Origin: an uncultured Candidatus Saccharibacteria bacterium
GTDB lineage: Bacteria; Patescibacteriota; UBA1384; XYA2-FULL-43-10; 1-14-0-10-43-13
Assembly (NCBI GenBank): GCA_964543385.1
Contig: CAZIYE010000001.1
Span: forward strand, 30,001 to 62,000
Length of the DNA: 32,000 nt
Direction: 5' to 3'
Shown piece by piece: positions 12,203 to 28,400 of this stretch; position 1 is the stretch's first letter, and the number at the start of each line of letters is the position of its first letter. Position numbers and translations under genes: made by a program. The notes beneath the pieces are model-generated. The model ran no database searches. It was given only the letters and a program-made list of their open reading frames with translations, and had not been told where the DNA came from.

Positions 12203-12234
12203 AAAAATGAGTAGGTCCCAACCTACTCATTTTT
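12203..12234 (+). terminator. intrinsic terminator after typA
   Basis: Perfect 14-bp stem AAAAATGAGTAGGT (12203-12216) / ACCTACTCATTTTT (12221-12234), 4-nt loop CCCA, T-run. Confidence 0.75.
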
Positions 12235-12323
12235 AGTGTTAACGAAATTGTCCACAATCTTAGCTTTACAAGAACAGTACAGAAGCACAGAATTTAAACA
12301 GCATCCGATTAAGGAGGCATGCC

Positions 12324-12530
12324 ATGAAAAACGAATATGGTTATGACCGCCCAGACCCTCAGCCGGATATTGTAAGGACTGAGGTACCATCCTATCCTCC
12401 ACCCATATGCCCAGAAGGGCATGTGGAATTTATCATCCCACTCGGCACAGGATATAGTTGCGCAAAAGCACTATGTCCGATCCGACCGAATGATATCCAA
12501 GATGGCACATGTTGTGCCTGCACAAAGTAA
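12324..12530 (+). CDS. stand-alone 68-aa Pro- and Cys-rich small protein, unknown function
   Basis: AAGGAGG at 12311-12317 lies 6 nt before the ATG. It has its own downstream terminator and an upstream terminator (typA). Six Cys (ICPEG, YSCAK, LCPI, TCCAC). No signal peptide or TM segment. Visibly GC-richer than its flanks. Confidence 0.55.
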   Translation: MKNEYGYDRPDPQPDIVRTEVPSYPPPICPEGHVEFIIPLGTGYSCAKALCPIRPNDIQDGTCCACTK

Positions 12531-12562
12531 ATGTCGCAGCTTATTTAATGAAACGTTGCAGC

Positions 12563-12599
12563 GGCCGTCCTGATCACTCGGGACGGCCTTTCATTTTCC
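12563..12599 (+). terminator. intrinsic terminator after the small Cys-rich ORF
   Basis: GGCCGTCC(TGA) at 12563-12573 pairs with (TCG)GGACGGCC at 12578-12588, loop TCAC, followed by TTTCATTTT. Confidence 0.65.
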
Positions 12600-12623
12600 C
12601 TTATTCTTGATAGAATATAAGTT

Positions 12624-13349
12624 ATGCAAATACGTTTAAATAAATTTATTTCCGATTCCGGTATAATGTCTCGCCGAAAAGCCGACGAAGCTATTTCAAA
12701 TGGTGAAATATCAGTAAATAACCAGGTAATTTCAGAGCTTGGTATTAAAATTGATCCAGAAAAAGATGCTGTCAAGTTCAATGGACGAAGGGTTAATCAA
12801 AGCACAGAGATCGTTTATTATGCAGTTTACAAACCAAACGGAGTGATTTCTACTGCCCAAGATGAGAAAGGTAGACAAAGCGTTACGGATCTTGTGCCGC
12901 GATTTCCTAGAGTTTATCCAGTTGGTAGACTTGATGCATATTCTGAAGGACTTATGATACTGACTAACGATGGAGATCTAACTCAGAAACTTACTCATCC
13001 TAGTTTCGAACACGAAAAGGAATACGAAGTTACTACTCACATCTCAAACGATGATCTGCGATACAATGTTAATTTGATCGGCCACCTAAAAAAATCCTTT
13101 ATAGAAGGCATGCGGATAGAGGGCAAACTTATGAAAGCAGACAAGATATTTATTAAAGAAAATGATAAATCTCTTGCTTTAGATTTGGTACTGCATACAG
13201 GTTATAACCGCCAAATTAGAAAGATGTGTGCTCAAATTGGCCTAGCCGTCTCCAAGATAAAAAGGATCAGAATAGGTAAGCTGAATCTTCATTCATTGAA
13301 TCTTAAACCAGGTGATTGCAAACAGATCAGTAAGAGTCAAATTATCTAA
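12624..13349 (+). CDS. rluB: RsuA/RluB-family pseudouridine synthase with N-terminal S4 domain
   Basis: S4 domain RLNKFISDSGIMSRRKADEAISNGEISVNN. Catalytic motif YPVGRLDAYSEGLMILTNDGDL, then GYNRQIRKM. Confidence 0.85.
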   Translation: MQIRLNKFISDSGIMSRRKADEAISNGEISVNNQVISELGIKIDPEKDAVKFNGRRVNQSTEIVYYAVYKPNGVISTAQDEKGRQSVTDLVPRFPRVYPVGRLDAYSEGLMILTNDGDLTQKLTHPSFEHEKEYEVTTHISNDDLRYNVNLIGHLKKSFIEGMRIEGKLMKADKIFIKENDKSLALDLVLHTGYNRQIRKMCAQIGLAVSKIKRIRIGKLNLHSLNLKPGDCKQISKSQII

Positions 13350-13351
13350 AT

Positions 13352-14347
13352 ATGATTACCAAACTACTACTCCTAGCTTCCATAGTGCTAAACACAGTAG
13401 GATTAAGGTCTCAAGCTCTTGATATTGATAAAAATCTCATACAAAAAGAGACAAATCCTGGTATTCTAGCAGAAGCATCTCTCAACCTACCATTACCAAA
13501 AATATCGATAAAACCGAAATTAGCGATAAATACACCAAAGCCTACGATCTATACAAAAAGTCACATATTAATTGACGAAGAGTCAGGAACAATATTGTCA
13601 GAAAAAGATAAGGATCTGAAACTGCCAATTGCTTCTACGACAAAAATCATGACGGGGATTATTGTCCTAGAAAAATACGATCTTGACGATGTTCTTACAG
13701 TCTCAAAAGAAGCAGCAAGCCAGATAGGTGTTGATCTGCTAACAGTAAAAGGCGAGAAAATTACTGTCCGCAACTTTCTCAAATGTCTTCTGATAAATTC
13801 TTCAAATCGTGCAGCCTTCGCTCTAGCCGAACACTATAATACTGCAAACGAATCCGGGATAACTAAGTTTGTTTCATTGATGAATCAAAAAGCAAAAGAA
13901 TTAGGTATGGTTAATACCGACTATCACGACCCAGCCGGACTTGATGTAACAGGATATTCAACAGCCTATGATTTAACTCTCGTTACAAAATATGCAATGA
14001 AAAATCCAATCTTCGCGGAAATTGTTAAAACAAAAGAAGAGGAAGTCACTGATGTCTCTGGAAAGATTAGATATCAACTTAGAAACTCAAATAGGCTAGT
14101 GAGAGAGTGGAATTATCCTGGAGCCTTGGGAGTAAAGACCGGCTATATGCCAGAAGCAAGCCACACACTAGTAGCTGCGGTTAGAAGAGACGGTCACACT
14201 CTTATTTCTGTAGTACTCTATACTTTTGTCGATACGGCTCCTGCTTCAGCAGAGGAATCGAAAAAATTATTTGACTGGGGATTTAAATACACCAGATGGG
14301 ACGACGAAATAGAACAAGCAGAAGAAGACATAAACGGAGATATATAA
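13352..14347 (+). CDS. D-alanyl-D-alanine carboxypeptidase (PBP5/S11 family), secreted
   Basis: N-terminal hydrophobic signal. SxxK (ASTTKIMT), SxN (INSSNRAA) and KTG (VKTGY) active-site triad at the expected spacing. Confidence 0.85.
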   Translation: MITKLLLLASIVLNTVGLRSQALDIDKNLIQKETNPGILAEASLNLPLPKISIKPKLAINTPKPTIYTKSHILIDEESGTILSEKDKDLKLPIASTTKIMTGIIVLEKYDLDDVLTVSKEAASQIGVDLLTVKGEKITVRNFLKCLLINSSNRAAFALAEHYNTANESGITKFVSLMNQKAKELGMVNTDYHDPAGLDVTGYSTAYDLTLVTKYAMKNPIFAEIVKTKEEEVTDVSGKIRYQLRNSNRLVREWNYPGALGVKTGYMPEASHTLVAAVRRDGHTLISVVLYTFVDTAPASAEESKKLFDWGFKYTRWDDEIEQAEEDINGDI

Positions 14348-14350
14348 GTT

Positions 14351-15052
14351 CTAGTTTAGCTCTTTCTCAACTTCACCCCAGCGCTCCAGAACTACTGCAG
14401 CAGCATCTATTTGAGCTCTTTGTTTCGACGGGCCAGCACCCTCTCCAACCTTTTTATCTCCGAGAAAAGCGCCGACAATAAAAGTCTTGGAGTGATCTGG
14501 TCCTGACTCAGAAATAACGTTGTAAGTAGGTGTTATACCAAACTGATCTTGAGCCAACTCCTGAAACTTACTCTTAGCATCTTGATAAAGACCTTTCTGA
14601 AGAATATTGTCCAATTTATAGCAAATGTTCTCAAGGATAAAATCCGATGCTTTATCAAAGCCTTGATCAAGATAGATTGCGCCAATAAGAGCCTCAAAGG
14701 CATTAGCTAGAATAATATCGCGAGCTTTTCCAACGTTTTTTGCTTCGCCACGTGAAGTTTTAATCAGGGGATCCATCCCGATTCTTTTCGCTTCATGTGA
14801 CAGTGATTCACCTTTTACCAAGGCGCTTCTCCAGTTTGTCAGCTCTCCCTCAGGACGATCATAGGTATCATAAAGATAACGAGTTACGGCCAATTCTAAG
14901 ACAGCATCACCAAGAAACTCGAGCCGCTCATTGTGTACAAGATTTAATGTTTTATGTTCGTTGAGATACGATCTGTGAATAAATACTGTTTCTAGAAGTG
15001 ATTTATCCTTAAATTGTATCCCAATCTTTTCTACAAATTCCTCTAATGTCAT
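14351..15052 (-). CDS. rnc: ribonuclease III
   Basis: RNase III signature NERLEFLGDAVLEL, EALIGAIYLD, and a C-terminal dsRBD (GPDHSKTF.V......G.G.G.SKQRAQIDAA). Confidence 0.95.
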   Translation of the reverse strand: MTLEEFVEKIGIQFKDKSLLETVFIHRSYLNEHKTLNLVHNERLEFLGDAVLELAVTRYLYDTYDRPEGELTNWRSALVKGESLSHEAKRIGMDPLIKTSRGEAKNVGKARDIILANAFEALIGAIYLDQGFDKASDFILENICYKLDNILQKGLYQDAKSKFQELAQDQFGITPTYNVISESGPDHSKTFIVGAFLGDKKVGEGAGPSKQRAQIDAAAVVLERWGEVEKELN

Positions 15053-15071
15053 TTGTCCTTTCCTAATAATT

Positions 15072-15539
15072 CTACATTTTTATTTTGTGCTTGCCCTCTA
15101 TTTTTTCCTCATATTTTTTATAGATTGTACCAAGTACACCATTTACAAACTTAGATGAACTCTCTCCGCCAAATTCTTTAGATAACTCAACTGCCTCATT
15201 TATTGCTACTTTTGGTGGTACATCTTTGAGATTAAAAAGCTCAAAAACTGCGATACGAAGCACGGTTTTATCAATCAATGAAATTTGATCTATGGGCCAT
15301 TCGGGAGCCGATTCGTCGACGATCTGATCCAGGTCATCCTTAACAAGAGTCACGCCTTCAACTAGGCTGTGAACAAAATCTTTCTCACATTTATTATCAT
15401 ACTCTGTGATATTGCGCTTTTCTATTTCGGAAACGTTAGAATCACTTCTAAAGTCCCATTCGTAGAGAGTTTGCATTGCTATCATACGAGATAAGTGTCT
15501 GTTCATAGATTTCTTTGTTATTTCGGACCTGCCTGCCAT
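15072..15539 (-). CDS. nusB: transcription antitermination factor NusB
   Basis: SRMIAMQTLYEWDF...IDKTVLRIAVFEL....VPPKVAINEAVELSKEFGGESSSKFVNGVLG is the typical NusB sequence. Confidence 0.85.
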   Translation of the reverse strand: MAGRSEITKKSMNRHLSRMIAMQTLYEWDFRSDSNVSEIEKRNITEYDNKCEKDFVHSLVEGVTLVKDDLDQIVDESAPEWPIDQISLIDKTVLRIAVFELFNLKDVPPKVAINEAVELSKEFGGESSSKFVNGVLGTIYKKYEEKIEGKHKIKM

Positions 15540-15581
15540 CCCGTACTTCCGTCTGGGCTCAGCCGAGACCGATGATACGGG
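15540..15581 (-). promoter_or_regulatory. GC-rich nested hairpin abutting the nusB start codon (possible translational or attenuator element)
   Basis: Outer stem 15540-15545 / 15576-15581 (CCCGTA/TACGGG). Inner stem 15551-15558 / 15562-15569 (8 bp with one G.G mismatch). The only SD-like GGAAG (complement of 15546-15550) lies inside the structure. Confidence 0.3.
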
Positions 15582-15629
15582 ATCTTCTGTACTGATCCGA
15601 AATCTGTATAATTATTTTAGATGAGATTA

Positions 15630-15659
15630 AAAAAGAGGCCTAAAATTAGTCCTCTTTTT
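15630..15659 (-). terminator. weak hairpin overlapping the rpmF stop codon
   Basis: AAAAAGAGG / CCTCTTTTT 9-bp arms (15630-15638, 15651-15659). The rpmF stop codon sits in the loop. Only 4 G:C pairs. Confidence 0.35.
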
Positions 15660-15828
15660 GCGCAAGTACTTGAGTATCAGAGTAGGTACCACATTTGTAA
15701 CAAACTTTATGAGGTTCCTTTGGCTCATGACATTTTGGACAATATACAAACGCATTTCGCACAACTTTGTCATGCATTCGACGCATGCCCTGCTTCGAAT
15801 TATTTGTTCGTTTCTTTGGTTCTGCCAT
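15646..15828 (-). CDS. rpmF: 50S ribosomal protein L32
   Basis: MAEPKKRTNNSKQGMRRMH...CPKCHEPKEPHKVCYKCG is the L32 zinc-ribbon. AAGGAA precedes the ATG. Confidence 0.9.
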   Translation of the reverse strand: MAEPKKRTNNSKQGMRRMHDKVVRNAFVYCPKCHEPKEPHKVCYKCGTYSDTQVLAQKED

Positions 15829-15916
15829 TATATTCCTTAAACTTTATAATCTGACGTACTTTTCACTTGGTAAACTAATGTTTATTATTGCATAAACTCT
15901 TTAAAAAATCAACCTC

Positions 15917-15946
15917 TTGCATTGTTTTAGAGTAGAGAGCTAAAAT
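15917..15946 (+). promoter_or_regulatory. possible promoter for the small zinc-finger ORF
   Basis: TTGCAT (15917-15922), 18 nt, TAAAAT (15941-15946). Confidence 0.3.
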
Positions 15947-15981
15947 AAGTTAGACCTAACTAGGTCGGGGAGGGAATGCTA

Positions 15982-16212
15982 ATGGAACAGTGTGGCAAGA
16001 ATGTTCATGCCTGTGCTGAACAAGCGCTTGATAACGGGCACATGTTTAACAACAATGCCAGTTGTCTTGAGTGCGTCAGCACACATATCAGCACCTGTCC
16101 AAAATGCGAAAAGTGGTTGTCCAGCCTTCACCAGGCGATGATCAACCGCGAAATCTCTCACATCCCGGGGCTCTTGAAGCTTCACTCGGCCGTCCAAAAA
16201 CGCGCCGCGTAA
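15982..16212 (+). CDS. 76-aa small protein with ZAS-like HxxxCxxC zinc-finger motif (orphan anti-sigma-like)
   Basis: GGAGG at 15969-15973 is 8 nt from the ATG at 15982 but only 2 nt from the ATG at 15976. Motifs C-11, CLEC, then H-ISTCPKC (HxxxCxxC). A strong hairpin with a T-run lies downstream on the + strand. An antisense ORF of equal length exists, so strand choice rests on the SD, terminator and motif. Confidence 0.45.
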   Translation: MEQCGKNVHACAEQALDNGHMFNNNASCLECVSTHISTCPKCEKWLSSLHQAMINREISHIPGLLKLHSAVQKRAA

Positions 16213-16245
16213 GTGTCTCAACGCTCCAATTGTAGCAACTTCATT

Positions 16246-16290
16246 TACCCCGCAGGACCTGATCTTGCGGGGTAAATATTTTTTATTTTA
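16246..16290. terminator. strong hairpin between the small ORF (+) and leuS (-), T-run on the + side
   Basis: 12-bp stem 16246-16257 / 16263-16274 (core CCCCGCA/TGCGGGG) with a 5-nt loop, then AAATATTTTTTATTTT. Probably terminates both convergent units. Confidence 0.6.
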
Positions 16291-19207
16291 CAACGATACT
16301 GACAAGCTTCTTTGGAATAATTATCGTTTTGATGACTTCTTTACCTTCAATAAGCTGCTTTATTTTATCGGAGTCAAGAGCAGTTTTCTTTAGTTCTTCA
16401 TCTGATATACCAGAAGAAACCGTTAGCTTATCACGTACCTTACCATTTATTTGAATTACTATTTCAACATTATCAGCAATTAAATACTCGGGATCAGCTT
16501 TTGGCCAATCATGCATCTCAATTGAATCTTTATTTTCGATCATAGCCCAGAGCTCAGAGGCAATATGTGGAGCAGCAGGGTAAAGCAATAGCATAAACTT
16601 GCTATAAGATTCTTTTGAGATCTTACCAGCCTTTTCTATAGCATTGTTTAGTTCCATCAATTTAGCAATATAGGTATTGAATCTAAAACCCTCAATATCT
16701 TCTGAAATACCAACAATCGTTTGGTTTAATTTAATCAGTAGTTCTTTCGAATCTTCGGCGCTGTCTAACTTCTCGATGTTGGCCCAAACCCGTTTCAGGA
16801 ATCTAAAAACTCCCTGTACACCAGCAGTACTCCAAGCGGACTCTTGGTCATAAGGCCCAATAAACATTATGTATGCGCGCAAAGTATCAGCACCATATTC
16901 AGAAGCAATATCGTCAGGGTTGATCACATTGCCAAATGACTTACTCATTTTCCTACCGTCTGGTCCAAGAATAATACCATGCGCAATTCTCTTAGCATAA
17001 GGCTCGCTTGTTGGAGCAATATTTAAATCATGAAGAAATTTATGCCAGAATCTCGAATAGAGAAGATGAAGAGTAGTATGTTCCATTCCACCATTATATA
17101 TATCGACAGGAGTCCAATATTCGAGTTTATCAGTCGCTGCTAGCTGAGCTTTATTCTCAGGATCGCAATAACGAAGGAAATACCAAGATGATCCCGCCCA
17201 GTTTGGCATAGTATCAGTCTCACGTTTTGCATCCCCACCACATTTTGGACACTTTGTATCAACCCAATCAGCAATAGCAGCCAGTGGGGACTCTCCCGTA
17301 TCTGTTGGTTCATATTTATCAACGTCAGGCAGAGTTAGCGGTAGCTGATCATCAGATAGTGGTACCATGCCACATTTATCACAATGAACTATAGGAATTG
17401 GCTCACCCCAATAATGCTGACGAGAAAATATCCAATCACGTAATTTAAAATTAACGGCCTTTTTGCCAACATTATGATCTTCGAGCCAACTAATCATCTT
17501 TTCTTTAGCTTGTTTTGACGGCAGATCATCAATAAAGTCAGAATTTACAGAAATGCCCAAATCAGAAAAGGCTTTCTCGCCCTCAACATAAGTAGTCCAA
17601 TAATACAGGTGATTTTCAAGATTTATAAAATTGTCTACCTTACTTTTCTCCACCCAGATTCCTTTATGATTTTTGATTTCTTCTGGATTAGGCTCAATAA
17701 ATTTATCCGATCCAAGCTCGATGAAAAAGGCACTAAAAACACCATATCGATTAACATTTTTATGACTGGCAAAGAAGGTATTATGAGTTGTAAAACCCAC
17801 TCTCTTTACCGACTTAATATCCTGATAACCAGTCTCTTCTTTCACTTCACGAACTATCGCTTCATCTTCTTTTTCGCCATCCTCAACACCACCGATAACA
17901 AAAGAATGCCAATCAAACTTCTCCCAGTCAAGTAAGTAGTATTTATCTTCACTCCAATGTTTGATGATACCTATGACAGCGTTTCTTCTGATAGTTTCCT
18001 TATCTTTCCTCGTTGCATCCCGACCAGTATTATTCTCAAAAAACGGAGCCACTACCTGCTTTATTTCAATATTATATTTTTTTGCAAATTCTAAATCACG
18101 CTCATCATGCGCAGGAACAGCCATGATAGCACCAGTTCCATAGCTTGCAAGAACATAGTCAGCAACATAGATAGGGATCTCCTCGTCATTAACTGGATTT
18201 ATTGCATAGACACCATATAGTTTGACTCCTGTCTTCTCTTTTTGCAATTCGGTTCGCTCAAGATCAGATTTCTTTTTTGCCTTATCTATATAGACTTTAA
18301 TCTCATCAAAATTTTGTATATGGTGACCGAGCTTACTAACGATTGGATGCTCAGGAGACACTACAAGATAAGTGCAACCAAAAAGCGTATCAGGTCTAGT
18401 AGTAAAGACCTCTATCTGCTCATCTGAGACAGTACCACTGAGGGATTTAACAACAAAATCTACATTTGCTCCGATTGATTTTCCGATCCAGTTAACTTGC
18501 TGGGTTTTTATTTTTTCTAGGTAATCTACTGTATCTAGATCTTTGATTAATCTGTCTGCATAAGCAGTAATACGAAGCATCCATTGCTTTTGTTTTCTTT
18601 TCTCGGCTTGAGTACCACATCGCTCGCAATTGCCGGAAATAACTTCTTCATTTGCAAGTACAACTTTACAAGAAGGACACCAGTTCACAGGCATTTCAGC
18701 TTGAAAGGCCAAACGAGGAGTAGAAGTATCATCGTCAGCAACCTCTATTAATTTACCATCGACAACTGCGTGCTTGTAAAACTGTAAAAATATCCACTGG
18801 GTCCATTTATAATATTGAGGATCTGTAGTATTTACTTCTCGGCTCCAATCAAAAGCAAGGCCCAACGACTTCATCTGCTTTTTAAACGTCTCGACATTAT
18901 TTTTTGTAGCAACTGCCGGCTTGATCTTGTTCTTTATGGCAAAGTTTTCTGTTGGCAAGCCAAAAGCATCCCAACCGATAGGGTACATAGTATTGTAGCC
19001 TTGCATTCGCTTCATTCGACAATAAGCATCTGAGGCACCGTAACCCATACAATGGCCAACATGAAGACCAGCGCCAGAAGGATAGGGGAACTCTACTAGA
19101 TGGTAGTGCTTTGGTTTTTTAGAAAAATCTTCCGATTTTCCATAATTATTTTCTTCCCAAATCTTCTGCCACTTAGCTTCGATTTCTGTGAAATTATAAT
19201 CTTTCAT
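16283..19207 (-). CDS. leuS: leucyl-tRNA synthetase carrying an internal Nudix-fold insertion
   Basis: 974 aa. HIGH-type LHVGH, KMSKS, CP1 editing motifs TTRPDTLFG and GTGAIMAVPAHDERDLEFAKKY, then RDWIFSRQHYWGEPIP. About 145 extra residues lie after CP1. Confidence 0.95.
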   Translation of the reverse strand: MKDYNFTEIEAKWQKIWEENNYGKSEDFSKKPKHYHLVEFPYPSGAGLHVGHCMGYGASDAYCRMKRMQGYNTMYPIGWDAFGLPTENFAIKNKIKPAVATKNNVETFKKQMKSLGLAFDWSREVNTTDPQYYKWTQWIFLQFYKHAVVDGKLIEVADDDTSTPRLAFQAEMPVNWCPSCKVVLANEEVISGNCERCGTQAEKRKQKQWMLRITAYADRLIKDLDTVDYLEKIKTQQVNWIGKSIGANVDFVVKSLSGTVSDEQIEVFTTRPDTLFGCTYLVVSPEHPIVSKLGHHIQNFDEIKVYIDKAKKKSDLERTELQKEKTGVKLYGVYAINPVNDEEIPIYVADYVLASYGTGAIMAVPAHDERDLEFAKKYNIEIKQVVAPFFENNTGRDATRKDKETIRRNAVIGIIKHWSEDKYYLLDWEKFDWHSFVIGGVEDGEKEDEAIVREVKEETGYQDIKSVKRVGFTTHNTFFASHKNVNRYGVFSAFFIELGSDKFIEPNPEEIKNHKGIWVEKSKVDNFINLENHLYYWTTYVEGEKAFSDLGISVNSDFIDDLPSKQAKEKMISWLEDHNVGKKAVNFKLRDWIFSRQHYWGEPIPIVHCDKCGMVPLSDDQLPLTLPDVDKYEPTDTGESPLAAIADWVDTKCPKCGGDAKRETDTMPNWAGSSWYFLRYCDPENKAQLAATDKLEYWTPVDIYNGGMEHTTLHLLYSRFWHKFLHDLNIAPTSEPYAKRIAHGIILGPDGRKMSKSFGNVINPDDIASEYGADTLRAYIMFIGPYDQESAWSTAGVQGVFRFLKRVWANIEKLDSAEDSKELLIKLNQTIVGISEDIEGFRFNTYIAKLMELNNAIEKAGKISKESYSKFMLLLYPAAPHIASELWAMIENKDSIEMHDWPKADPEYLIADNVEIVIQINGKVRDKLTVSSGISDEELKKTALDSDKIKQLIEGKEVIKTIIIPKKLVSIVVK
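17573..18010 (-). other. Nudix hydrolase domain embedded in LeuRS (aa ~400-545)
   Basis: Perfect Nudix box GX5EX7REUXEEXGU: GGVEDGEKEDEAIVREVKEETGY (aa 439-461, nt 17825-17893). Flanking beta-strand-like segments (AVIGIIKH, YYLLDWEK.DWHSFVIGG, VFSAFFIEL) fit the Nudix fold. Confidence 0.75.
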
Positions 19208-19313: not shown

Positions 19314-19390
19314 GGGCCCTTAGCTCAGTTGGCTAGAGCGCCTCCATGGCATGGAGGAGGCCAAGGGTTCAAGTCCCTTAGGGTCCACCA
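19314..19390 (+). tRNA. tRNA-Ala, anticodon GGC, CCA encoded
   Basis: Hand-folded cloverleaf. Acceptor GGGCCCT/AGGGTCC with the G3:U70 Ala identity pair and A73. D-arm GCTC-AGTTGGCTA-GAGC. Anticodon arm CCTCC-ATGGCAT-GGAGG. T-arm AAGGG-TTCAAGT-CCCTT. 77 nt. Confidence 0.93.
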
Positions 19391-19421
19391 AAAAATAACT
19401 AGTCTAGGACTAGTTATTTTT
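19391..19421. terminator. bidirectional intrinsic terminator between tRNA-Ala and the convergent 1050-aa gene
   Basis: Perfect 14-bp stem AAAAATAACTAGTC / GACTAGTTATTTTT, 3-nt loop, A-run and T-run on either side. Confidence 0.7.
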
Positions 19422-19479
19422 TGTTAGTTTACATTATATGCTTAGTGAATTTAACCTCGTTTTAAGACAGAATAACTAG

Positions 19480-22400
19480 TTATTTTAGTAATACAGCATC
19501 TATTTCACCTTCGGCAATATCACCAGGGGTCCGGAAATTAACCGTTCTAATCATGATTCCTTGCTTAAAAAAGGGCCTAAAACCTGGACCGTCCGCATAA
19601 CCAGGTACCAACAAGAAGCATCCGCTTTTGTCGTAAGATTCTTTAAACATTTTTAAGTTAGAGTCATTATCAGGAGTCATGGTATTCATTCTTGTCATGG
19701 ATAGCACAATCTTTCCATTCCTTTGCTTTTTTGGAAGATTTGGCCCAATCCCAACACGATAATGAAAAGGGTTATTCTGATCGAGATTAGTTAGTATTGT
19801 CACCCTGATTCTGTCCTCTTCATCTCGCTCACCGATCTCTTCCTTCCAATTAGAGAAAATTTTTTTTCCAGCATCGATATTCTTGAAAATTACGGTCAGC
19901 ACCGGTGGATGAATATTCTCTGACGCAGGAATAAATCCTACTCCTTGCCATTGTGCCTCATCCCATAAAACTGGCCTTGATGTTAAGAGAGTTTCAAAAT
20001 CTCCATGTTTAACTTGACGAAAGGGATCTTCGGCAAGTTCTGCCGCATTCTCTCCATCATCAGGTTTCTCGACAGAGGGAAAACTGAGTAGATTTTGTCG
20101 AGCAATTGGGTATTCGGTATCTTCATTTTTAATCCAATCAGCAAGCTTTGTCTTTGGCTTTTTACCAAGCACATTCCCAATTGTGATAAATGAACCCGTG
20201 AAGTTCAATGATCGCTCTACTGCTAGTTCACCGACAAGCAACGCTTGTAATTCTTTCTCGTCCCTAAAAACTACCATTCGAGCAGTAATATCTACGATAA
20301 TTTTAAAAAGTGATTCGTTAATCTTCTCTTGGTCTTTGCGCCTGATTGAATGGGGATCAAAATTTGTGCAGTGTATCTCAATACGTGGCCCTGAAGGATC
20401 ATCCTTGCACTCATGGCTGATTAACTCTCCATGTGCAGAGTCATCAACCGTAATTATTACTTGGCTTTCCCTTGGTATCTGGCGATTAGTGATGGTTGTT
20501 GACAGAAAACTTTCAAGCGCCGCCAAAACTGATTCTGTCAATTCAAGACAAGGAGATTGATTTTTTGCCTCGACAATAATCTTACAACCTAAGATTATTG
20601 ATTCAAACTTTACATCTTTATCTTCTGTTTGGATTGCATTTGATGGTAAATAATCCTCATCAGCTATCTGTGCCCATTTAGTAAAGAATTCTGTGTATTC
20701 CTCATAAGGAATGTTGTCCTTAAATTCTTCCCAAAATTTATCTTCATGCCCAAGTGCATACAGCAATGCAATTCGCGCAAAATCCATTCCTATTCGCGCA
20801 AGAACATCTGGTAATTTTTGCATAGCTTCCAGAGTACGTTTATCTGATCGTAATATAATATACCCTAATGCTAGTTCAAACTTGTCAACCGCCTCCAATA
20901 AATCGCCTTTATCTGACCTTTTTTGAATCAGCGCATTCCTCATTGTTAGATCCAGCTGATGCCAATCAAGAGATTGAGGCATTCGACCCAATCTAAGCTC
21001 TAACCATTTAAGTCGACTATAACAAGCGGCCTGCATTCGATTGATTTCTCCATGACTCCAGAAACTACTAGTAGCTAGTGATGCAGATGTGACAAGCACT
21101 CCTCTTGCTGCCCACAGTAATCCTGCCATTTCATAAGCTATACTGATCAGATATAGTGCCTCCACGATCTCGTCTTTGCTCTCATATTTATATAGCTTGG
21201 TTAGAGAGCGTCCTAATACGATGATGGCTTGATATGTATCTTCATTTCTAATTAATTCTTTTCCCCTATCTAGAAGTAGTTTTGCGCCTGTAACTTCTCC
21301 TTCCCTTCGAGAGATTTCTTCAACTGTTTCCTCAAATAATTTGCCATATTCGGAGTTGCTGACAAGCATTTTTCCCAATTCAATGATGATGTCTGCGTGC
21401 GGCCTGAAAGGAAATCCGATCAAGTTTCTTGACTCTTTGACAGAAGCGCGTAAATCAGATATTAGATTATTAGCTTCTTCACCGTTCACTAACCTGTTTG
21501 ATAATTCAACTTCGTTATTTAAAAAGCGAGCATACAAAGAAGAACTTGGTTTTTCATCATCTTTCATTAAGTCGCCGAGCTTTGATTTAAGAATTTTAGC
21601 TTTTTCGTCTAGAAAGTCAGAATCAATTTTGGCCAAACCAGATCGATGGATATTATATAAACAGTGCCAAAGATTACACAAGCGCTCAATTTGAAAGATA
21701 TTATTGCCTGTTATCGCCAGCTTCTCAACCTCAAGATACTGATCTATAAATGTAGAATAATCTTCATGCCACCAAAAGAGCGTCCAGGCATACTGATAGT
21801 TATAGTCAAATAATAAATAGGGGTTAGCCAGCTTTTTAGTCAATCTTTGCGCCCTTAAAAATCTGCCATCAATATCAGTTCTCGGCAACTCAAGTTCTCT
21901 GGCGATGATAGCGGAATCGATCGAATCTTCTGCGACAGCATCGTTAATATTGTTTGCTTCTATTGCCTTGTCTATGCGCTCATCCAATTCACTTAGACGA
22001 TCCTCCTTTTTTTGATCCAACGGTCCCTTTTTAACCTGCTCCCAGGAACTGCTCTTAATGCCCAACTCTTCCTGGGCAATTTTTTCACGCTTACTTTGGA
22101 AGATCTGGTCCAATATCCATGTGCGATCCATGATTTGAACTTCAACACCAAATTTTTCGCGAAGCATATCCTGTGTCTCTGACCTTTTCCTCGAACTAAT
22201 GCTTTTGCTGGATAAAAAATAAATACGCTTAAAATTGCGATCGGTTCCGACAGCTTTCTCAACATCGGCAACAACTTTCGCCTTCCAATTCTTATTGACG
22301 CTAATCGCAAGACCCCAACGCTCATCTGCTGCTTTCTTTTCAACGCATGAATACCATCCGAGCACTGTTATATCTGACACAGGGTAAGTTTCTGAGTCAA

Positions 22401-22632
22401 CCTTGCCATCACCGCCTCCTGTCGGACCAGTATTTGGCATAAAATTTGGACTTATCGCCGCTCTGCACAATCGTATTCCAAATCTTTCGAATTCTACCTC
22501 TTGGCTTCTGCTCGATAGTGTATCAAGGTAATGCTCAAGAACAATACGATCAATTTGTGACTCTTTGATTGATGAAGAATCAGAAAATTGCTTTGGTCGT
22601 CTAGCTCTAAGAAATTGTTTTGGCGTGATCAT
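19480..22632 (-). CDS. 1050-aa orphan protein: N-terminal Mrr/PD-(D/E)xK-like signature, long all-helical repeat body, unassigned C-terminal domain
   Basis: Uninterrupted 3.15-kb ORF. N-terminus reads FERFGIRLCRAAISPNFMPNTGPTGGGDGKVDSE...WGLAISVNKNWKAKV...RIYFLSSKSISSRKR...GVEVQIMDRTWILDQI, resembling the Mrr_cat layout (FE helix, GDGG-ID strand, xK strand). The middle ~450 aa are helical and TPR-like in composition. No Walker A motif. No family recognised for the last ~250 aa. Confidence 0.85.
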   Translation of the reverse strand: MITPKQFLRARRPKQFSDSSSIKESQIDRIVLEHYLDTLSSRSQEVEFERFGIRLCRAAISPNFMPNTGPTGGGDGKVDSETYPVSDITVLGWYSCVEKKAADERWGLAISVNKNWKAKVVADVEKAVGTDRNFKRIYFLSSKSISSRKRSETQDMLREKFGVEVQIMDRTWILDQIFQSKREKIAQEELGIKSSSWEQVKKGPLDQKKEDRLSELDERIDKAIEANNINDAVAEDSIDSAIIARELELPRTDIDGRFLRAQRLTKKLANPYLLFDYNYQYAWTLFWWHEDYSTFIDQYLEVEKLAITGNNIFQIERLCNLWHCLYNIHRSGLAKIDSDFLDEKAKILKSKLGDLMKDDEKPSSSLYARFLNNEVELSNRLVNGEEANNLISDLRASVKESRNLIGFPFRPHADIIIELGKMLVSNSEYGKLFEETVEEISRREGEVTGAKLLLDRGKELIRNEDTYQAIIVLGRSLTKLYKYESKDEIVEALYLISIAYEMAGLLWAARGVLVTSASLATSSFWSHGEINRMQAACYSRLKWLELRLGRMPQSLDWHQLDLTMRNALIQKRSDKGDLLEAVDKFELALGYIILRSDKRTLEAMQKLPDVLARIGMDFARIALLYALGHEDKFWEEFKDNIPYEEYTEFFTKWAQIADEDYLPSNAIQTEDKDVKFESIILGCKIIVEAKNQSPCLELTESVLAALESFLSTTITNRQIPRESQVIITVDDSAHGELISHECKDDPSGPRIEIHCTNFDPHSIRRKDQEKINESLFKIIVDITARMVVFRDEKELQALLVGELAVERSLNFTGSFITIGNVLGKKPKTKLADWIKNEDTEYPIARQNLLSFPSVEKPDDGENAAELAEDPFRQVKHGDFETLLTSRPVLWDEAQWQGVGFIPASENIHPPVLTVIFKNIDAGKKIFSNWKEEIGERDEEDRIRVTILTNLDQNNPFHYRVGIGPNLPKKQRNGKIVLSMTRMNTMTPDNDSNLKMFKESYDKSGCFLLVPGYADGPGFRPFFKQGIMIRTVNFRTPGDIAEGEIDAVLLK

Positions 22633-22666
22633 TATGAGCCCAGGTTACTGCTATTAACTAACTATT

Positions 22667-22695
22667 AGGGTAATTAGTTCTCAGTAAGATGTCAA
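22667..22695 (-). promoter_or_regulatory. possible promoter of the 1050-aa gene
   Basis: Minus strand has TTGACA (complement of 22690-22695), 17 nt, TACCCT (complement of 22667-22672). No clear SD before the ATG. Confidence 0.3.
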
Positions 22696-22845
22696 TCGCT
22701 TTTCGAGGTATTCATCTGGGATTATCAGCGCTCCCTTGGTCTAACTTTGAGCCAAGAGGTGGTAGGAATATCCAGGCACTATTAATTAGACTGATTACTG
22801 TAAATTTCTCTTAGTATCGGCTCCCATTCGTGCATAAAATCAATG

Positions 22846-22882
22846 AAGGTGTTCCAAGTTTTTTCGTCATAGTCCACCAAAG
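22846..22882 (+). repeat. degenerate direct copy of the tRNA-Ala 3' end (candidate att remnant)
   Basis: AAGGtGTTCcAAGT (22846-22859) matches tRNA AAGGGTTCAAGT (19363-19374). GTCCACCAAA (22872-22881) matches tRNA 19383-19392 at 10/10. Same strand, same order, spacing 26 vs 20 nt. Confidence 0.4.
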
Positions 22883-22986
22883 AAAAATCAATTCTCACAA
22901 GATTATTTTTTCTTGATTGACAAAAGTCCCTAATCTATCAGAGAACAAAAAATAGGATATGCGTTAGTGGCGGTTAGAACAATCTG

Positions 22987-23478
22987 TTAGATTATATATT
23001 TTTTAACCTCTTCATAACTTTTTGAAGCAAAGAAAGAGTTATTTACCCATTGCTCACCTGTTATATCTTTGCCAAACCAATCAGGGATAGAAAAATCTTT
23101 CACTGACATATCATCAACAAAAACCATTTCTATTAAAATAAAACCTTCAAGATTACCATGAAAAACATCGATTCTTAGTTCTGGTCCTATTCCTAGATTC
23201 GAATAATAATATCTTGTTTTGGAAAGCTTCTTGGGAATTAATTTCCAAATTGAACCAAATTCCTCCTTGGAGATAGGCAACTCTATATGCTCTCTTATGC
23301 TAGCATCGCCAGGCATTCCAATAAGTTTTTTAGTAACTGAATATAATTCATCTTTCTTTCTGAATCTGAGTGAATCCTGTGCATCGATAAAATAACCCTG
23401 ATCTATTTCAGCCTTTTGATGTTTCTCAAGATCTTTTGGTAATTCTTTAACTAAAAAAGTTTTTTCGATTCTGACCAT
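22987..23478 (-). CDS. CYTH (triphosphate tunnel metalloenzyme-like) domain protein with non-canonical N-terminal motif
   Basis: 163 aa. RIEKTFLVKELP......IDQGYF...LRFRKK....SVTKK...IREHIEL...SKTRYYY...LRIDVF.GNLEGFILIEMVF...IPDWFGKDITGE..VNNSF follows the CYTH strand pattern. The canonical EIERKFLV start reads RIEKTFLV. Confidence 0.75.
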   Translation of the reverse strand: MVRIEKTFLVKELPKDLEKHQKAEIDQGYFIDAQDSLRFRKKDELYSVTKKLIGMPGDASIREHIELPISKEEFGSIWKLIPKKLSKTRYYYSNLGIGPELRIDVFHGNLEGFILIEMVFVDDMSVKDFSIPDWFGKDITGEQWVNNSFFASKSYEEVKKYII

Positions 23479-23490: not shown

Positions 23491-24690
23491 CTACTCATAT
23501 TTTAATGCATCTAAAGGATTTAATTTAACTGCTCTTTTCGCAGGATACCATCCCGTTAAAAAGCCAACAACAATTGAAAAAAGTGCTACACATAAGGCAA
23601 AATTAAACGGAGTTACAAATAAATCAATTGGCTGAGCTGACGCTTTTATTGCAACATATTTTATTATAAAATTCAAACCTTGAGAAAAAAACACGCCAAA
23701 GAGCAAACCAATTATGCCGCCAAGCAGACCAATAAAAAGTGATTCTGTAACAAAAATTTTATAAACATCTTTGTTCCTCATACCAAGTGCCTTCATCAAC
23801 CCGACCTCCCTAATTCTTTCCATTAAACTGATCGTTAGTATATTGAATGTACCCAATGAAGCAACTATCAGAGCGATCATGCCAAATACGCCAAGAACAA
23901 CTCTGAAAAGTAAGAAAACCTCTGATACTTTATTCACGGTATCTCCGATATACTCAGTCTTAAGATTTAAAGTTTCTATAAATTGCCTAGACGAGGCAAT
24001 TTTATCTTTACTATTAACCTTTACCTTCATAGCAGAGTAGTTTACTATCCCCAAAAAGTCATTGTTTGAATCACTGATGTAAGCAGTGGGAATATTTTCG
24101 TTATCTGTTATGCCAACAACTTTGAAAGATAATTCCTTGAGACTAGACGGACCATCTTGGTTTTGCAATAAGTTAGAAGGGAGCACTAACTCAATATTAA
24201 TATCTTTATTTACGATATCCTGAGAATTCTCATTTATTAATCCCAAAACTGCTTTACTTAAGACTATTTCGCCGTTGTCTGTAGGAAATTTGCCTTTTGC
24301 TAGAATTCCACCAGAAACATTAAAATAATTTTGATTTGATGATATTACTAATGTTTCTGCAACCGATTTATTCTCCGAACCTTTGATCCTAGCTGGTATA
24401 TTTGCAATTGGCATTACTTCAATAACATTGGGAGCACTATCGATTGTGCCAGCCACCTCTTTATCTATTCTGTTTACTTTATAATTTTTTGTTGTTACAT
24501 CAATTGTTTTCAGGGCTTCAAAGTCGGAAACTAATTGATTCGTCACAAGTTTCTCTAAACCAAATCCAAAAGAAACAAGAAATATTATTGATGAAATACC
24601 AATCGAAACACCACCAACAGTTAAAATTGCCCTCATACGATGAGACCATAGGTTTTTGAATGCTATTTCTGATATTAGTGACTGTCTCAA
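23491..24690 (-). CDS. ABC transporter permease, MacB/FtsX family
   Basis: 399 aa. N-terminal FKNLWSHRMRAILTVGGVSIGISSIIFLV, a ~220-aa extracytoplasmic domain, and a C-terminal FtsX 3-TM bundle (MERIREVGLMKALGMRNKDV...YPAKRAVKLNPLDALKYE). Confidence 0.88.
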   Translation of the reverse strand: MRQSLISEIAFKNLWSHRMRAILTVGGVSIGISSIIFLVSFGFGLEKLVTNQLVSDFEALKTIDVTTKNYKVNRIDKEVAGTIDSAPNVIEVMPIANIPARIKGSENKSVAETLVISSNQNYFNVSGGILAKGKFPTDNGEIVLSKAVLGLINENSQDIVNKDINIELVLPSNLLQNQDGPSSLKELSFKVVGITDNENIPTAYISDSNNDFLGIVNYSAMKVKVNSKDKIASSRQFIETLNLKTEYIGDTVNKVSEVFLLFRVVLGVFGMIALIVASLGTFNILTISLMERIREVGLMKALGMRNKDVYKIFVTESLFIGLLGGIIGLLFGVFFSQGLNFIIKYVAIKASAQPIDLFVTPFNFALCVALFSIVVGFLTGWYPAKRAVKLNPLDALKYE

Positions 24691-25424
24691 AATACTCCTT
24701 GTAATTCTGTCCTTATTTCGTTCGCTACACCCTGTGCATCTGATGAAATAACCAGACCATCTTTAATAGCAACTTTTTTACTAGCCATGGGTAAATAAAT
24801 CAAATTATGAGTAACCATTATTATTGTTCTCTTTTCATTTACATTTAAATTTTGTAAAAGCTGCATAATTTGATCAGATGAGTGAGTATCCAAATTCCCT
24901 GTTGGCTCATCAGCAACAATAATTAATGGATTATTTACTAATGCGCGAGCCAATAAAGCTTTTTGCTGTTCACCGCCAGAGAGCTGAACAGGAGATTTGA
25001 GTGCGTAATCTTGCATACCGACCTCTTCTAGGCATGCCATAGCTCTTTTGAATGCTTTATCTTTGGCAAAACCTTCAACATAAAGAGGCATGGCAACATT
25101 CTCCAACACTGTCAGTGATTTAATCCAGTACCACATTTGATAGACAATTCCAAAATTTTTAGAACGAAAGATCGATCGTTCTTCGTCTGTTATAGTTGCA
25201 ATATTCTGTCCTTGTATGAAAATGTTTCCTTTTGTCGGTTTTTCCAGGCCTATAATATGATGCAACAGTGTTGATTTTCCAGAACCAGATGGACCATAAA
25301 TTATACATAGATCTGATTTATTTATTGTTAAATCGATACCTTTTAAGATTGGGTATTTGATATTACCATCTCGCGATTTATATGTTTTTTCTAAATTTTC
25401 AATTTTAATTAAAGTATTTTCCAC
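24687..25424 (-). CDS. ABC transporter ATP-binding protein (MacB/LolD/FtsE-like)
   Basis: Walker A GPSGSGKST, Q-loop VYQ, signature LSGGEQQK, Walker B IIVADEPTGNLD, H-loop VTHN. ATGA overlap with the permease gene. Confidence 0.93.
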   Translation of the reverse strand: MENTLIKIENLEKTYKSRDGNIKYPILKGIDLTINKSDLCIIYGPSGSGKSTLLHHIIGLEKPTKGNIFIQGQNIATITDEERSIFRSKNFGIVYQMWYWIKSLTVLENVAMPLYVEGFAKDKAFKRAMACLEEVGMQDYALKSPVQLSGGEQQKALLARALVNNPLIIVADEPTGNLDTHSSDQIMQLLQNLNVNEKRTIIMVTHNLIYLPMASKKVAIKDGLVISSDAQGVANEIRTELQGVF

Positions 25425-25431: not shown

Positions 25432-28400
25432 TTATTTTAAGAATCCAAACATCCATCCGAAAGTTTTTTGCAATGAATTTACGATTATACTAACTACTGA
25501 TTGTTGCGGGCTATTAGTGATGATGGTTGTGTCATCGCCATAAACAATATTATCACTGGCATCTTCAGAAACAGCTCTCAGATGATAAATTCTAGATGGA
25601 TCCAGTCCGGTTATCACTACGATATGGCTTTTAACTAACTCATTATCTTCTTTTGTTTTATAATTGTAATCAGCTCCAGAGATACCATCGGAATATTCAA
25701 CTTGAGAAGATGATGGTTCATCTGTTTCCCAAGAAACAACAAGCTCTGATTTGGTATTCTCGCTAGTTCCTGATTTTACTTCGTGGGAAAAATTAGTAAT
25801 TTTAGGAGCCCTTGTATCAAATGGTGTAGAATAATCCTGGACATCAGAAGTGCATTTATTACCAGAACCATCCATTCCCTCAATCTGAATTTCATAATTT
25901 ATATTATCTTCCAAGTCATTCAAGACAAGATCGTGGGCTTTTTTTAATTCTGCATCAGATTTGATTTGCCATTCCTCACTTCCTTTTATTCGATATCTAA
26001 CGATTGAAGTTGTATCTAAATTTGTCTCCCATACGGTTCTCACAGCGGCCTGAACCTCCTTTAAATAATCAAATTCGATACCAGAGATTTTAGGATAAGG
26101 TAGAGTTGTGAATGTTAGTGAAGTATAGTACGGCTGATTATCAGAAGATCTAGCCTCAATAATTAATTGATAATTTGTACCAGGGGTTAAATTCACAAGC
26201 CGCTCAGAAAATTTTGTAGCTTGACCATTAACAGTTTTAATCATTTCATAGTTCCCAACACCATATTTTAATGTTACTGTAGCGAGATCGCTAATCTCAA
26301 AATCAATAGTTGCGGTAAAGGGGCTGGTCGCTGTAACAGTTGGATTTTTAATTACCCTTGCCTGCATCGTTGTTGTTGAAAACCATTCACTTTCGCCATC
26401 ATTATTTGATGCATCTTTCCATACTAACTTATATTTATATTGTCTTTGTGGTTCCAACCCTATTAGAGATACAACGTGAACTTGTGTAAGTTCATTTTTT
26501 CCTTGCTGAGTTCCGTCATCAAGCTTAACATATGAAGTTGTCTGCTTGGAAGATACCCAGGAAACCTCTAAAGAAGTTGGCTCTCCTTTAACTGTTGGAC
26601 CAGTTAGAATACTTGCTGCGTCAGTAGTACAAAAAACTAATGTTTGCCAATCAGATACGTTGCCAACCTGATCCTTTGAGCGAACATAGAATACATTATC
26701 ACCATCTTGATAAGGAGTGATAGTTGCTGTGGTTTGCTCTGTAAAACTAATTTCCCCTTGAGCACCAAGTTTATAATCATAACCGACAACTGGTTTGGGT
26801 TGTCCTTCCTGGGTATCAGATGATTCTGGCCATGTCAAAGTAAAGGTTTTGGCGATTTGACAACCGGGCTTATCAATATTTACATATTCAATTTTGTTAG
26901 GGGCATTGTTATCATATTTATATTCAAAGAGAGTTACAGCTTCTGAATAATTCCGAGCTAAATCCCTTGTTCTTAATCTAAAATAATAAGTCTGATCGTT
27001 CACTAAAGTTCCATTATAAACAAAAGAGGTAGTAGCAGTGTAATTATTAGCAAAGAGAGGGTCACCACTTTGATCAGTGCCGAAATAGATTAGATATCCA
27101 TCGACACCACTCATATTATTAGATCGACTACATTCGCTACCAACAATTTGACCGTCAACAACTACATCCTGACATACTAAATTACCTTCACTATCAATAT
27201 CGTTAGAAGGCAACCACGAAAAACTCAATTGACTGTCGTTATACCAATTGCCACTAATAAGATCTTGACTATCGTTTGAAACAACTACACTTGATGGATT
27301 CTCGGGAGGAACAGTATCAGAATGATTTGTATAAAGTCGAAAGTTATCTATAGGTTGATTAATTGAATAACTTGGCATTATAGGATTAGAACCAACGTAA
27401 AAATAATACCCCAAATTTGTCAGATTCGACCATGGTGCAAATGTTTTATTCGCTATTTCATTACCGTCAATAAGTATTTTTACTTCTCCGGAAGAATTAT
27501 TGTAAGATACTTTTATCTTATGCCAATCACCGGCATTTAGAGATAAAGATGGTGTGTGTAAAACATAAGGTGTAGCGCCTGCTGAAATTGTAAACCTTAT
27601 CTGGTTTCGATTAGGTACTAATTCAACTGTCATGGGATTTGATCCGGAAGTTGTGAAAAGAGTTCTTTTTTGAGAACCATCAAATGGTGTCCAGTCAGAT
27701 AAATCCCACTTTGATTTTATGATACGACCTGATCCCTGATAGTCTACAATGTACATATCTCCGCTTGTTTCATCATAGACAACATCTCTCGCTGTTGAAA
27801 GACGACCAGGCGCTAAAAAAGGAACACTTGACGTTCCAAAGGTTGTCCAATCCGATCCGTCTATTTTAGTTTTTACTATTCTTGCATTTGAATTGTCAGC
27901 AATGTAGATATCCCCTGTAGCTTTGTCAAACTGGATTCCAGAGGGATAATAAAATTGTCCAATTCCGCTTCCATAGCTACCATATGTTGTCCAGCCTGTA
28001 CCATCCATTTTGGTCTTAACGATACGATGGTTACTGTAATCTGTTGCATAGATATAACCAGAGGTATTATCGTAATTAATACCCATTACCCCCTTAAACT
28101 GTCCCACGCCTGTCCCATAGCTACCATATGTTGTCCAGCCTGTACCATCCATTTTGGTCTTAACGATACGATGATTACTGTAATCTGCTACATACACAAA
28201 CTCACTTGCTTGATCATATTGAATATCATATGGATTGTTAAACCTTCCTATCCCTGTTCCGCTACTACCATATGTTGTCCAGCCTGTACCATCCATTTTG
28301 GTCTTAACGATTCTACTGTTTCCTCTATCAACTATATAAAGTAAATCAGTTGTCGAATCATACGATATGGATTGGGGATAAAGAAATTGATTAACACCAT

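Follow-up and report, generated by a model that had tools for sequence, protein, structure and literature searches.

The described systems closest to the protein examined here are the Avs proteins Avs4 and Avs2, DSR1/DSR2, bSEFIR and Upx. In DSR1 and DSR2 the literature describes an N-terminal SIR2 domain that is activated when the C-terminal domain detects a phage, and Dsr1 and Avs7 have a sensor in common (PMC13581612). EcAvs2 has been described as having a TPR-type helical region followed by a beta-rich C-terminal part, and Upx as a terminase sensor that lacks a nucleoside triphosphatase (NTPase) and bears a PD-(D/E)xK nuclease (PMC13601566). SEFIR is a single-protein system that depletes NAD+ by way of its N-terminal SEFIR domain (bioRxiv 10.1101/2024.02.11.579819). 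Here we analyze a protein from a 32,000-nucleotide stretch of an uncultured Candidatus Saccharibacteria bacterium (assembly GCA_964543385.1, contig CAZIYE010000001.1, positions 30,001 to 62,000; this whole stretch is called the window below, and coordinates count from its first letter). A single uninterrupted open reading frame (ORF) on its minus strand, at 19480-22632, encodes 1050 amino acids (aa), and an earlier note made from the letters of the window had called its product an orphan and a candidate single-gene defense or sensor module. We find that the protein is not an orphan and that it is a member of a large, unnamed family that is scattered horizontally and patchily in bacteria. Its nuclease-like head, its helical-repeat body, the tail domain it has in common with an anti-phage protein and the scattered occurrence of the family indicate that it is most likely an undescribed one-gene phage-defense system, whose nuclease activity, trigger and defense phenotype we infer.

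An AlphaFold2 model of the full protein, built with 50 homologues (predicted local distance difference test (pLDDT) 86.2, predicted template modeling score (pTM) 0.73), divides it into four parts (Table 1): an N-terminal head, a helical solenoid and two C-terminal subdomains, C1 and C2, the latter joined to what precedes it by a disordered linker. The C-terminal part without a recognized motif, which the earlier note had put at about 250 aa, is thus about 390 aa long (residues 661-1050). Two other readings in that note, a TPR-type helical body and the absence of a Walker A/B NTPase module between head and body, stood up as follows: Residues 205-660 are all-helical, with about 26 helices in succession between residues 204 and 655 of the model, and a Foldseek search of the PDB with the full-length model returned only TPR proteins (LGN/Pins, KLC1, OGT, NprR and Rap), the solenoid matches having a probability of 1.0 but E values of only 1e-3 to 2e-2. 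A regular-expression search found no Walker A motif, the model has no alpha/beta NTPase domain, and there was no AAA, NACHT or NB-ARC match in Pfam. The same full-length search extended to the BFVD likewise gave nothing except TPR proteins, and no counterpart of C1. The 34-residue Pfam TPR motif is not matched in the 1050-aa protein, and the precomputed Pfam entry is "-" for nearly all homologues; since these models are silent, we call the body TPR-like. Mean pairwise identity in the family is 51% in the head, 32-34% in the solenoid, 26% in C1 and 33% in C2. This pattern is that of a conserved effector and a diversifying sensor, and the conserved head and variable body fit a division of the protein into those two functions. 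A match of C1 to a profile of the NusA N-terminal domain (E 0.048) was marginal and was not relied upon.

What is the head? When the N-terminal domain is modeled separately (pLDDT 79), the alpha-beta-beta-beta-alpha-beta core of the PD-(D/E)xK superfamily is present, and all five of its top PDB neighbors in Foldseek are nucleases of that superfamily. Portal-bound Avs4 ranks first, with two of its chains (8dgf; E 9e-4 and 4e-3, probability 1.0, query-normalized TM-score (TMq) 0.47-0.49); FokI and EcoT38I (two chains) come next, and N.BspD6I and XPF, also PD-(D/E)xK nucleases, lie lower down. Subunits of the RPB5 type recur among the structural matches, and the N-terminal domain of RPB5 is classed with the restriction-endonuclease-like folds. 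The motifs quoted in the earlier note are all in place (FERF at residues 48-51, GGGDGKVD at 72-79, AISVNK at 109-114, RIYFLSS at 136-142 and VQIMDRTW at 165-172), and of its Mrr/PD-(D/E)xK reading of the head the part that concerns the fold is borne out by the matches to Avs4, FokI, EcoT38I and N.BspD6I. Conservation peaks in a glycine-rich acidic loop that is presumed to lie at the active site. Across 85 diverse sequences D75, K77 and D79 of this loop are invariant, and so, outside the loop, are the head residues S111, K119 and D123; E81 is invariant or almost so. The note had also singled out D75 and K113 as residues for point mutation; residue 113 is an asparagine in this protein and lysine is found there in 80% of its relatives, although K114 is present. 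Taken together, these observations support a nuclease fold; given the S-x-K variant of the active-site motif and the low confidence of the loop in the models (both below), catalytic competence of the head is no more than plausible.

The C-terminal end provides a direct tie to a known defense protein. When residues 661-1050 were compared with plasmids by tblastn, the matches were members of the family and one 372-aa "TIR domain-containing protein" encoded by a Lactiplantibacillus plantarum plasmid, which matches residues ~880-1050 with an E value of 5e-4. A profile of 73 family C-termini aligns with residues 162-368 of this protein over 179 columns in hhalign (97.8%, E 9.7e-13), the alignment covers the W..A.W.G motif that is invariant in the family, and the reverse tblastn search from the L. 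plantarum protein returns family members. That protein carries the Pfam domains SEFIR and TIR_2 and matches the bSEFIR profile of PADLOC (release 2.0.0 of 2023, used here throughout with its candidate families included) with an E value of 7.4e-57, its residues 2-362 lying on profile positions 36-397 of 412; because the match is full-length, the bSEFIR model itself contains the C-terminal domain in question. By these sequence comparisons C2 is homologous to the bSEFIR defense protein's C-terminal domain, and since SEFIR works through its N-terminal domain, the domain in common is the non-effector part. A search for further C2-bearing proteins through the bSEFIR-type member found only that protein. 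Its gene (L178, positions 3982-5100; plasmid NZ_CP020094) encodes a full-length bSEFIR homologue annotated only as a "TIR domain-containing protein", and its neighbors on the plasmid, which is mobilizable and 14.8 kb in size, are a gene for an AbiEii toxin and the toxin-antitoxin pair YafQ/Phd.

How large is the family? A word-indexed search found at least 471 full-length homologues (36-48% identity, 96-100% coverage), and 1887 clusters (50% identity) reached an E value of 1e-3 or lower in an exhaustive HMMER search, 644 of them 1e-30 or lower; nearly all 1887 contain one full-length stretch of 1050-1150 aa. The sources annotate these homologues as "hypothetical" or "TPR repeat protein", a few of them have a SEC-C motif at the C-terminus, and a search of open-access literature found no paper that names the family or its accessions. 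The 1050-aa protein has no match in Pfam, PADLOC, NCBIfam, PHROGs or the PDB sequences, and neither the search of each domain alone, which the earlier note had proposed, nor profile searches by hmmsearch gave a significant match (Pfam, NCBIfam, PADLOC, PHROGs and phmmer against the PDB); a CinA_KH match with an E value of 0.03 was treated as noise. Annotation pipelines are at present unable to detect the family because it has no Pfam, NCBIfam or PADLOC model. Matches to a housekeeping family, by profile or by structure, were likewise lacking. In a Gemmataceae metagenome-assembled genome (MAG) the family gene (L085, positions 10001-13266) is apparently split into at least two ORFs, and a frameshift or a pseudogene is possible there.

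The family is widely but thinly distributed. A motif-seeded scan of 185,579 species, one genome per species, gave at least 224 loci (a lower bound) in more than 12 phyla, among them Patescibacteria-type lineages (Peribacteria and TM7), Bacillota, Chloroflexota, Acidobacteriota, Verrucomicrobiota, Planctomycetota, Cyanobacteriota, Bacteroidota, Pseudomonadota and Gemmatimonadota. No partner gene is conserved: when the neighbors of 80 loci were clustered, no neighbor family occurred in more than five of them, so the gene acts alone and is not syntenic, and the patchy occurrence is not that of a gene with a fixed position in the core genome. Members lie on 13 plasmids, 10 of which are conjugative or mobilizable, and on five IMG/VR contigs whose other genes encode a large terminase (E 3e-215), portal, head protease, integrase and endolysin. 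An unannotated 11.6-kb GenBank entry from human feces, "Bacteriophage sp." MT836254.1, has a full-length member at 3447-6359 (27% identity, 96% coverage).

In five of eight plasmid contexts known defense systems are directly adjacent to the family gene. The neighbors on a Sphingobium plasmid are HamA (PADLOC E 3e-109) and HamB (1.7e-274), which constitute Hachiman; those on a Burkholderia plasmid are IetA (1.4e-73), IetS (4e-60) and PD-Lambda-4 (6e-302); those on a Nostoc plasmid are PD-T7-5 (4.8e-102), AbiEii, an integrase and a NACHT protein. The Agrobacterium plasmid neighbor is a protein with a restriction endonuclease (REase) head and an Avs2-like STAND domain, and the Cupriavidus plasmid neighbor is a PD-T4-6/Stk2-like kinase surrounded by insertion sequence (IS) elements and integrases. 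On two plasmids parAB lies beside the family gene. Within 10 kb of the 80 genome loci we found type I restriction-modification, CBASS cyclase with TRIP13, SIR2-pAgo, DRT, IetAS, AriA, Gabija-like helicases and Dodola. The defense-module reading in the earlier note is thus supported by the C2-bSEFIR homology, the adjacent systems on plasmids and the prophage copies. The NACHT-domain protein of the Nostoc plasmid (L005, positions 14625-17048 of NZ_CP040303; 808 aa), which shares a small defense cluster with the family member, PD-T7-5 and AbiEii, is matched by no PADLOC model.

We compared the family with each of the systems introduced above. It resembles Avs4 and Avs2 in its N-terminal head of the PD-(D/E)xK fold (Avs4 being the best structural neighbor), in having a beta-rich C-terminal "sensor" part after a long helical region of the TPR type, and in being a horizontally mobile single gene; it differs from Avs and other STAND proteins in that the middle is all-helical, without a STAND NTPase, and in that PADLOC finds no Avs match, and since it has neither the NTPase nor a hidden Markov model (HMM) match it is not an Avs member. 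Like bSEFIR, it is a single gene with an N-terminal effector and a homologous C-terminal domain, but the effector of bSEFIR is a SEFIR/TIR NADase and not a nuclease fold, bSEFIR proteins of ~370-410 aa have no solenoid or C1, and the window protein matches neither SEFIR nor TIR in Pfam or PADLOC, nor the bSEFIR HMM; lacking a SEFIR domain, it is not a bSEFIR member. DSR1 and DSR2 follow a comparable plan, being ~1000 aa long, lacking an NTPase and having their effector at the N-terminus and a helical-repeat sensor at the C-terminus. Their effector, however, is a NADase of the SIR2 type, neither sequence nor PADLOC searches detected a relationship to the family, and the sensor parts are likened by description. 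Upx shares with the family a large single protein with an unannotated sensor, a divergent PD-(D/E)xK nuclease, no STAND NTPase and a broad phyletic spread; its nuclease, with an ExK motif (E1176), is C-terminal and that of the family N-terminal, its sensor is beta-rich and not a TPR-like solenoid, and the window protein has no PADLOC match of any kind. Because the order of the domains is reversed, the family is not a Upx member. Mrr and type IV restriction proteins (PF04471) resemble the head, by eye and in the fold matches, in the order of secondary structure elements and in a glycine-rich "GGGD-x-x-x-D" loop that precedes a beta hairpin, and they differ from it in having Q, E or D of the QxK motif where the family has S111 and in lacking a family insertion of ~13 aa between the acidic loop and beta-2. 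By analogy, the family might be described as Avs minus its NTPase, or as DSR2 or bSEFIR with a nuclease head, and would then be a single-protein receptor of a sort already known in many systems.

How might such a protein act? If it works as Avs, DSR1/DSR2, bSEFIR and Upx do, its solenoid together with C1-C2 would bind a phage-derived trigger, probably a protein; binding would free the nuclease heads from autoinhibition and/or drive their oligomerization; and the activated heads would cut DNA, with the result that the infection is aborted. Since there is no NTPase, activation would have to proceed by a conformational change induced by binding or through pre-formed oligomers, which have reportedly been proposed for DSR2. 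We give this trigger-activated nuclease model a slightly better than even chance. That the 1050-aa family is a defense or conflict protein of some kind we regard as probable, with some confidence. For the composite reading, in which the protein is a sensor-effector immune protein that stands alone, lacks an NTPase and belongs to an undescribed, horizontally mobile family, and this genome carries its copy as a ~3.5-kb cassette at tRNA-Ala (below), the balance of the evidence is modestly favorable.

The evidence for the cassette is as follows: A segment made up of the last 8 nt of tRNA-Ala and the 43 nt downstream has a second copy beyond the start of the 1050-aa gene (Table 1). Both copies contain the exact sequence GTCCACCAAA, weaker similarity extends back into the T-arm, and the distal copy is the best non-self match of the proximal segment within the 32-kb window (32 identities, the next best match having 28; the maxima in 30 whole-window shuffles were 26-30). 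The family genes of three further genomes likewise converge with a tRNA gene, whose 3' end lies 28-95 nt from the stop codon. Beside the tRNA-Leu of one (L026) a repeat was sought and none was found; in another (L078) the 3' terminus of tRNA-Asn recurs as a 13/15 copy 27 nt upstream of the ORF start, at a spacing of 3454 bp. These features are suggestive of the insertion, at the tRNA-Ala 3' end, of a one-gene, integrase-less cassette of ~3.5 kb. The third genome (L076, positions 3518-14293), an Acidobacteriota MAG, has its family member inside an array that numbers 27 tRNA genes (17 lie upstream of it and 9 directly downstream), and two other loci (L079 and L086) appear to share this arrangement.

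Table 1. Features of the 1050-aa gene, its product and its surroundings, with the convergent tRNA genes of three other family loci (positions refer to the window unless a locus is named)
Feature	Residues	Position	Strand	Remarks
Whole gene	1-1050	19480..22632	-	Full-length-conserved member of a large unnamed family, ~1050-1150 aa
N-terminal alpha/beta domain (head)	1-205	22018..22632	-	PD-(D/E)xK restriction-endonuclease-like fold; putative effector
Glycine-rich acidic loop TGPTGGGDxKVDxETYPV	68-85	22378..22431	-	Conservation peak; presumed active-site loop
Beta-3/helix segment A109-x-S111-x-(K/Q/N)113-K114...W116..K119	109-119	22276..22308	-	At the canonical (D/E/Q)xK place
TPR-like alpha-helical solenoid	206-660	20653..22017	-	All-helical in the model; putative sensor/scaffold
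Subdomain C1	661-830	20143..20652	-	Alpha/beta; least conserved part
Subdomain C2	~873-1050	19483..20016	-	Beta-rich; homologous to the bSEFIR C-terminal non-effector domain
tRNA-Ala(GGC)		19314..19390	+	Convergent with the 1050-aa gene; possible integration target
Hairpin terminator		19389..19423	.	Perfect 16-bp palindrome with an A-tract and a T-tract at its sides
att-like direct repeat, proximal		19383..19433	+	Last 8 nt of tRNA-Ala and 43 nt downstream
att-like direct repeat, distal		22872..22922	+	32/51 identical, exact register, spacing 3489 bp
Upstream spacer		22633..22986	.	354 bp, without an ORF of 60 aa or more; contains the distal repeat
Convergent tRNA-Leu		L026 6415-6500		Repeat sought, none found
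Convergent tRNA-Arg		L076 13349-13424
Convergent tRNA-Asn		L078 13348-13422

A number of observations weigh against the composite reading. The nuclease assignment is by fold, with borderline Foldseek E values (9e-4 to 1e-2) and TMq values below 0.5. The N-terminus of Avs4 is, reportedly (Gao et al., 2022), a Mrr-like nuclease, and that this is the part of Avs4 aligned with the head is inferred from the other matches, as the output does not show the aligned residues. Sequence membership in Mrr_cat, the other part of the Mrr reading in the earlier note, was not borne out: the window protein does not match Mrr_cat (PF04471), one of 32 N-domains did so at an E value of 0.12, which is noise, and hhalign comparisons of the N-domain profile with E. 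coli Mrr (probability 0.2%) and with the REase head of the Avs2-like Agrobacterium neighbor were both negative. The family is not a Mrr_cat member by sequence, and at the level of sequence profiles its head is also unrelated to a REase head of the Avs2-like or Aga type. In both models low confidence is confined to the acidic loop (pLDDT below 50). At the canonical (D/E/Q)xK place the window protein reads AISVNKNWKAK, in agreement with the VNK given in the earlier note. Across the family the motif is S-x-K/Q/N, with S111 in place of the acidic residue; ~80% of sequences have K at position 113 and the rest have Q, M, T, N or R there (N113 followed by K114 in the window protein), three of the 85 sequences having no basic residue at either 113 or 114. 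PADLOC reports no family for the protein even at E values up to 10, and no known defense HMM matches it. Among the genome loci the immediate neighbors and those 6-10 kb away are similarly rich in defense genes, so the survey of homologues beside defense genes that the earlier note had suggested gave adjacent systems on plasmids but no near-versus-distal gradient in genomes; as the near and distal sets are alike and come without a genome-wide baseline, the genome neighborhoods are qualitative evidence, and several chromosomal contexts are plain housekeeping or regulatory ones. With respect to the cassette, the two repeats in the window are only 63% identical, the only gene between them is the 1050-aa ORF, with no integrase, and an empty site in a syntenic relative lacking the insert could not be located: the 163-aa gene on the flank has no relatives, and synteny with the nearest LeuRS/tRNA-Ala locus (L108) does not extend past the tRNA. 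The GC content at third codon positions (GC3) of the gene, 0.343, is native-like (0.319 +/- 0.062 for the window genes), so it bears no compositional sign of recent acquisition.

Could the protein instead sense nucleic acid directly, as a type IV-restriction-like or plasmid-targeting nuclease whose head both reads and cuts DNA and whose body oligomerizes or regulates it? The true restriction enzymes FokI, EcoT38I and N.BspD6I among its structural neighbors would suit such a role, as would the absence of an NTPase switch and the frequency of the family on plasmids, twice with parAB adjoining; but a large diversifying body (26-34% identity against 51% in the head) is typical of protein-sensing receptors, C2 is common to bSEFIR, which has no DNA-cutting role, and the protein has no recognizable DNA-binding or modification-reading domain, so we consider this unlikely. 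Slightly less likely still is a role in the maintenance of mobile elements or in competition between them (addiction, exclusion or anti-plasmid activity), from which the carrier would benefit rather than a host facing phages. Although the 13 plasmids and the prophages, the integrases, IS elements and par genes alongside and the cassette-like repeats at the tRNA end all point in this direction, most copies are chromosomal and have no adjacent mobility genes, there is no antitoxin-like partner, and the immediate neighbors are specifically anti-phage systems; such a role is in any case compatible with defense, and the two are not mutually exclusive. We think it improbable, more so than either of these, that the protein is a non-immune TPR scaffold or regulator with a dead, degenerate nuclease-fold domain, and that its association with defense genes is incidental to the accessory genome. 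The degenerate motif (Ser for D/E/Q and a variable Lys), the lack of a defense HMM match, the housekeeping or regulatory contexts and the name "TPR repeat protein", which is all that the sources offer, are what one would expect of such a protein, yet one would not expect a dead domain to show the highest conservation in the family, nor to keep D75, K77, D79, K119 and D123 invariant over more than 12 phyla. Presence in ~0.1% of species with rampant horizontal transfer is unlike a housekeeping gene, and C2 and the directly adjacent defense systems again tie the family to immunity.

If the reading as a one-gene immune receptor is correct, a large cross-phylum family would join DSR1/2, bSEFIR and Upx as single-protein receptors without a STAND NTPase. 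The bSEFIR C-terminal domain would then be a portable module that can be coupled to either of two unrelated effectors, the nuclease fold or the SEFIR NADase, and C2 would be a trigger-sensing or switch domain for effectors of both types. The shared domain would give a handle on how infection is sensed, since the same trigger could be sought for both effectors. The gene would also be among the few candidate immune genes of an ultra-small genome and an example of a defense gene that moves as a one-gene cassette beside tRNA genes. A wider generalization, which we put forward tentatively and think rather doubtful, is that these are widespread NTPase-less receptors, of which this protein would be the first to be recognized, with a divergent head built on a non-canonical S-x-K / K119 site and controlled by the solenoid together with C2 as a portable switch, carried by an integrase-less cassette of ~3.5 kb that enters tRNA 3' ends even where genomes are very small (671 kb for the contig studied here).

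The gene arrangement given in the earlier note is real: the 1050-aa ORF is convergent with tRNA-Ala(GGC), whose end lies 89 nt from its stop codon, and is flanked on the other side by a non-coding stretch (put at ~350 bp in that note). Of the terminator and promoter-like elements that the note had assigned to the gene, the terminator hairpin was found, and as a bidirectional terminator it can serve both the tRNA and the 1050-aa gene. The promoter was not: the upstream spacer has no sigma-70-like site, and the 14 promoter-like matches in the region are near the shuffle mean of 10.1 +/- 3.2. An Rfam scan found no family besides the tRNA. The remaining window genes are housekeeping genes (PheT, a class II aminoacyl-tRNA synthetase, BipA, a pseudouridine synthase, D-Ala-D-Ala carboxypeptidase, RNase III, NusB and LeuRS).

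Other features of the window were noted in passing. The LeuRS at 16283-19207 on the minus strand has a NUDIX hydrolase domain inserted at residues 432-524 (Pfam PF00293, E 1.8e-10, which exceeds the curated cut-off); the genes of its relatives in metagenomes range from ~2.4 to 3.5 kb, and the relative at L108 has a free-standing Nudix gene close to the corresponding tRNA-Ala. When 5.8 billion proteins were searched by word index, the 163-aa ORF at 22987-23478 (minus strand) matched none but itself, and it has no Pfam match; it does match phrog_6660, a phage family of unknown function (E 2.3e-14), and by eye it looks CYTH-like. At the end of the window the ORFs at 30130-30504 and 31105-31656 have a GC content of 0.46-0.47 and a GC3 of 0.44-0.53, compared with ~0.38 and 0.32 in the rest. 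A minus-strand gene at 25432-29823 encodes a 1463-aa protein with an NHL-repeat beta-propeller and laminin-G and fibronectin-III domains, probably a surface protein, and it lies directly upstream, on the same strand, of genes for an ABC transporter (the ATPase at 24687-25424 and an FtsX-type permease at 23491-24690).

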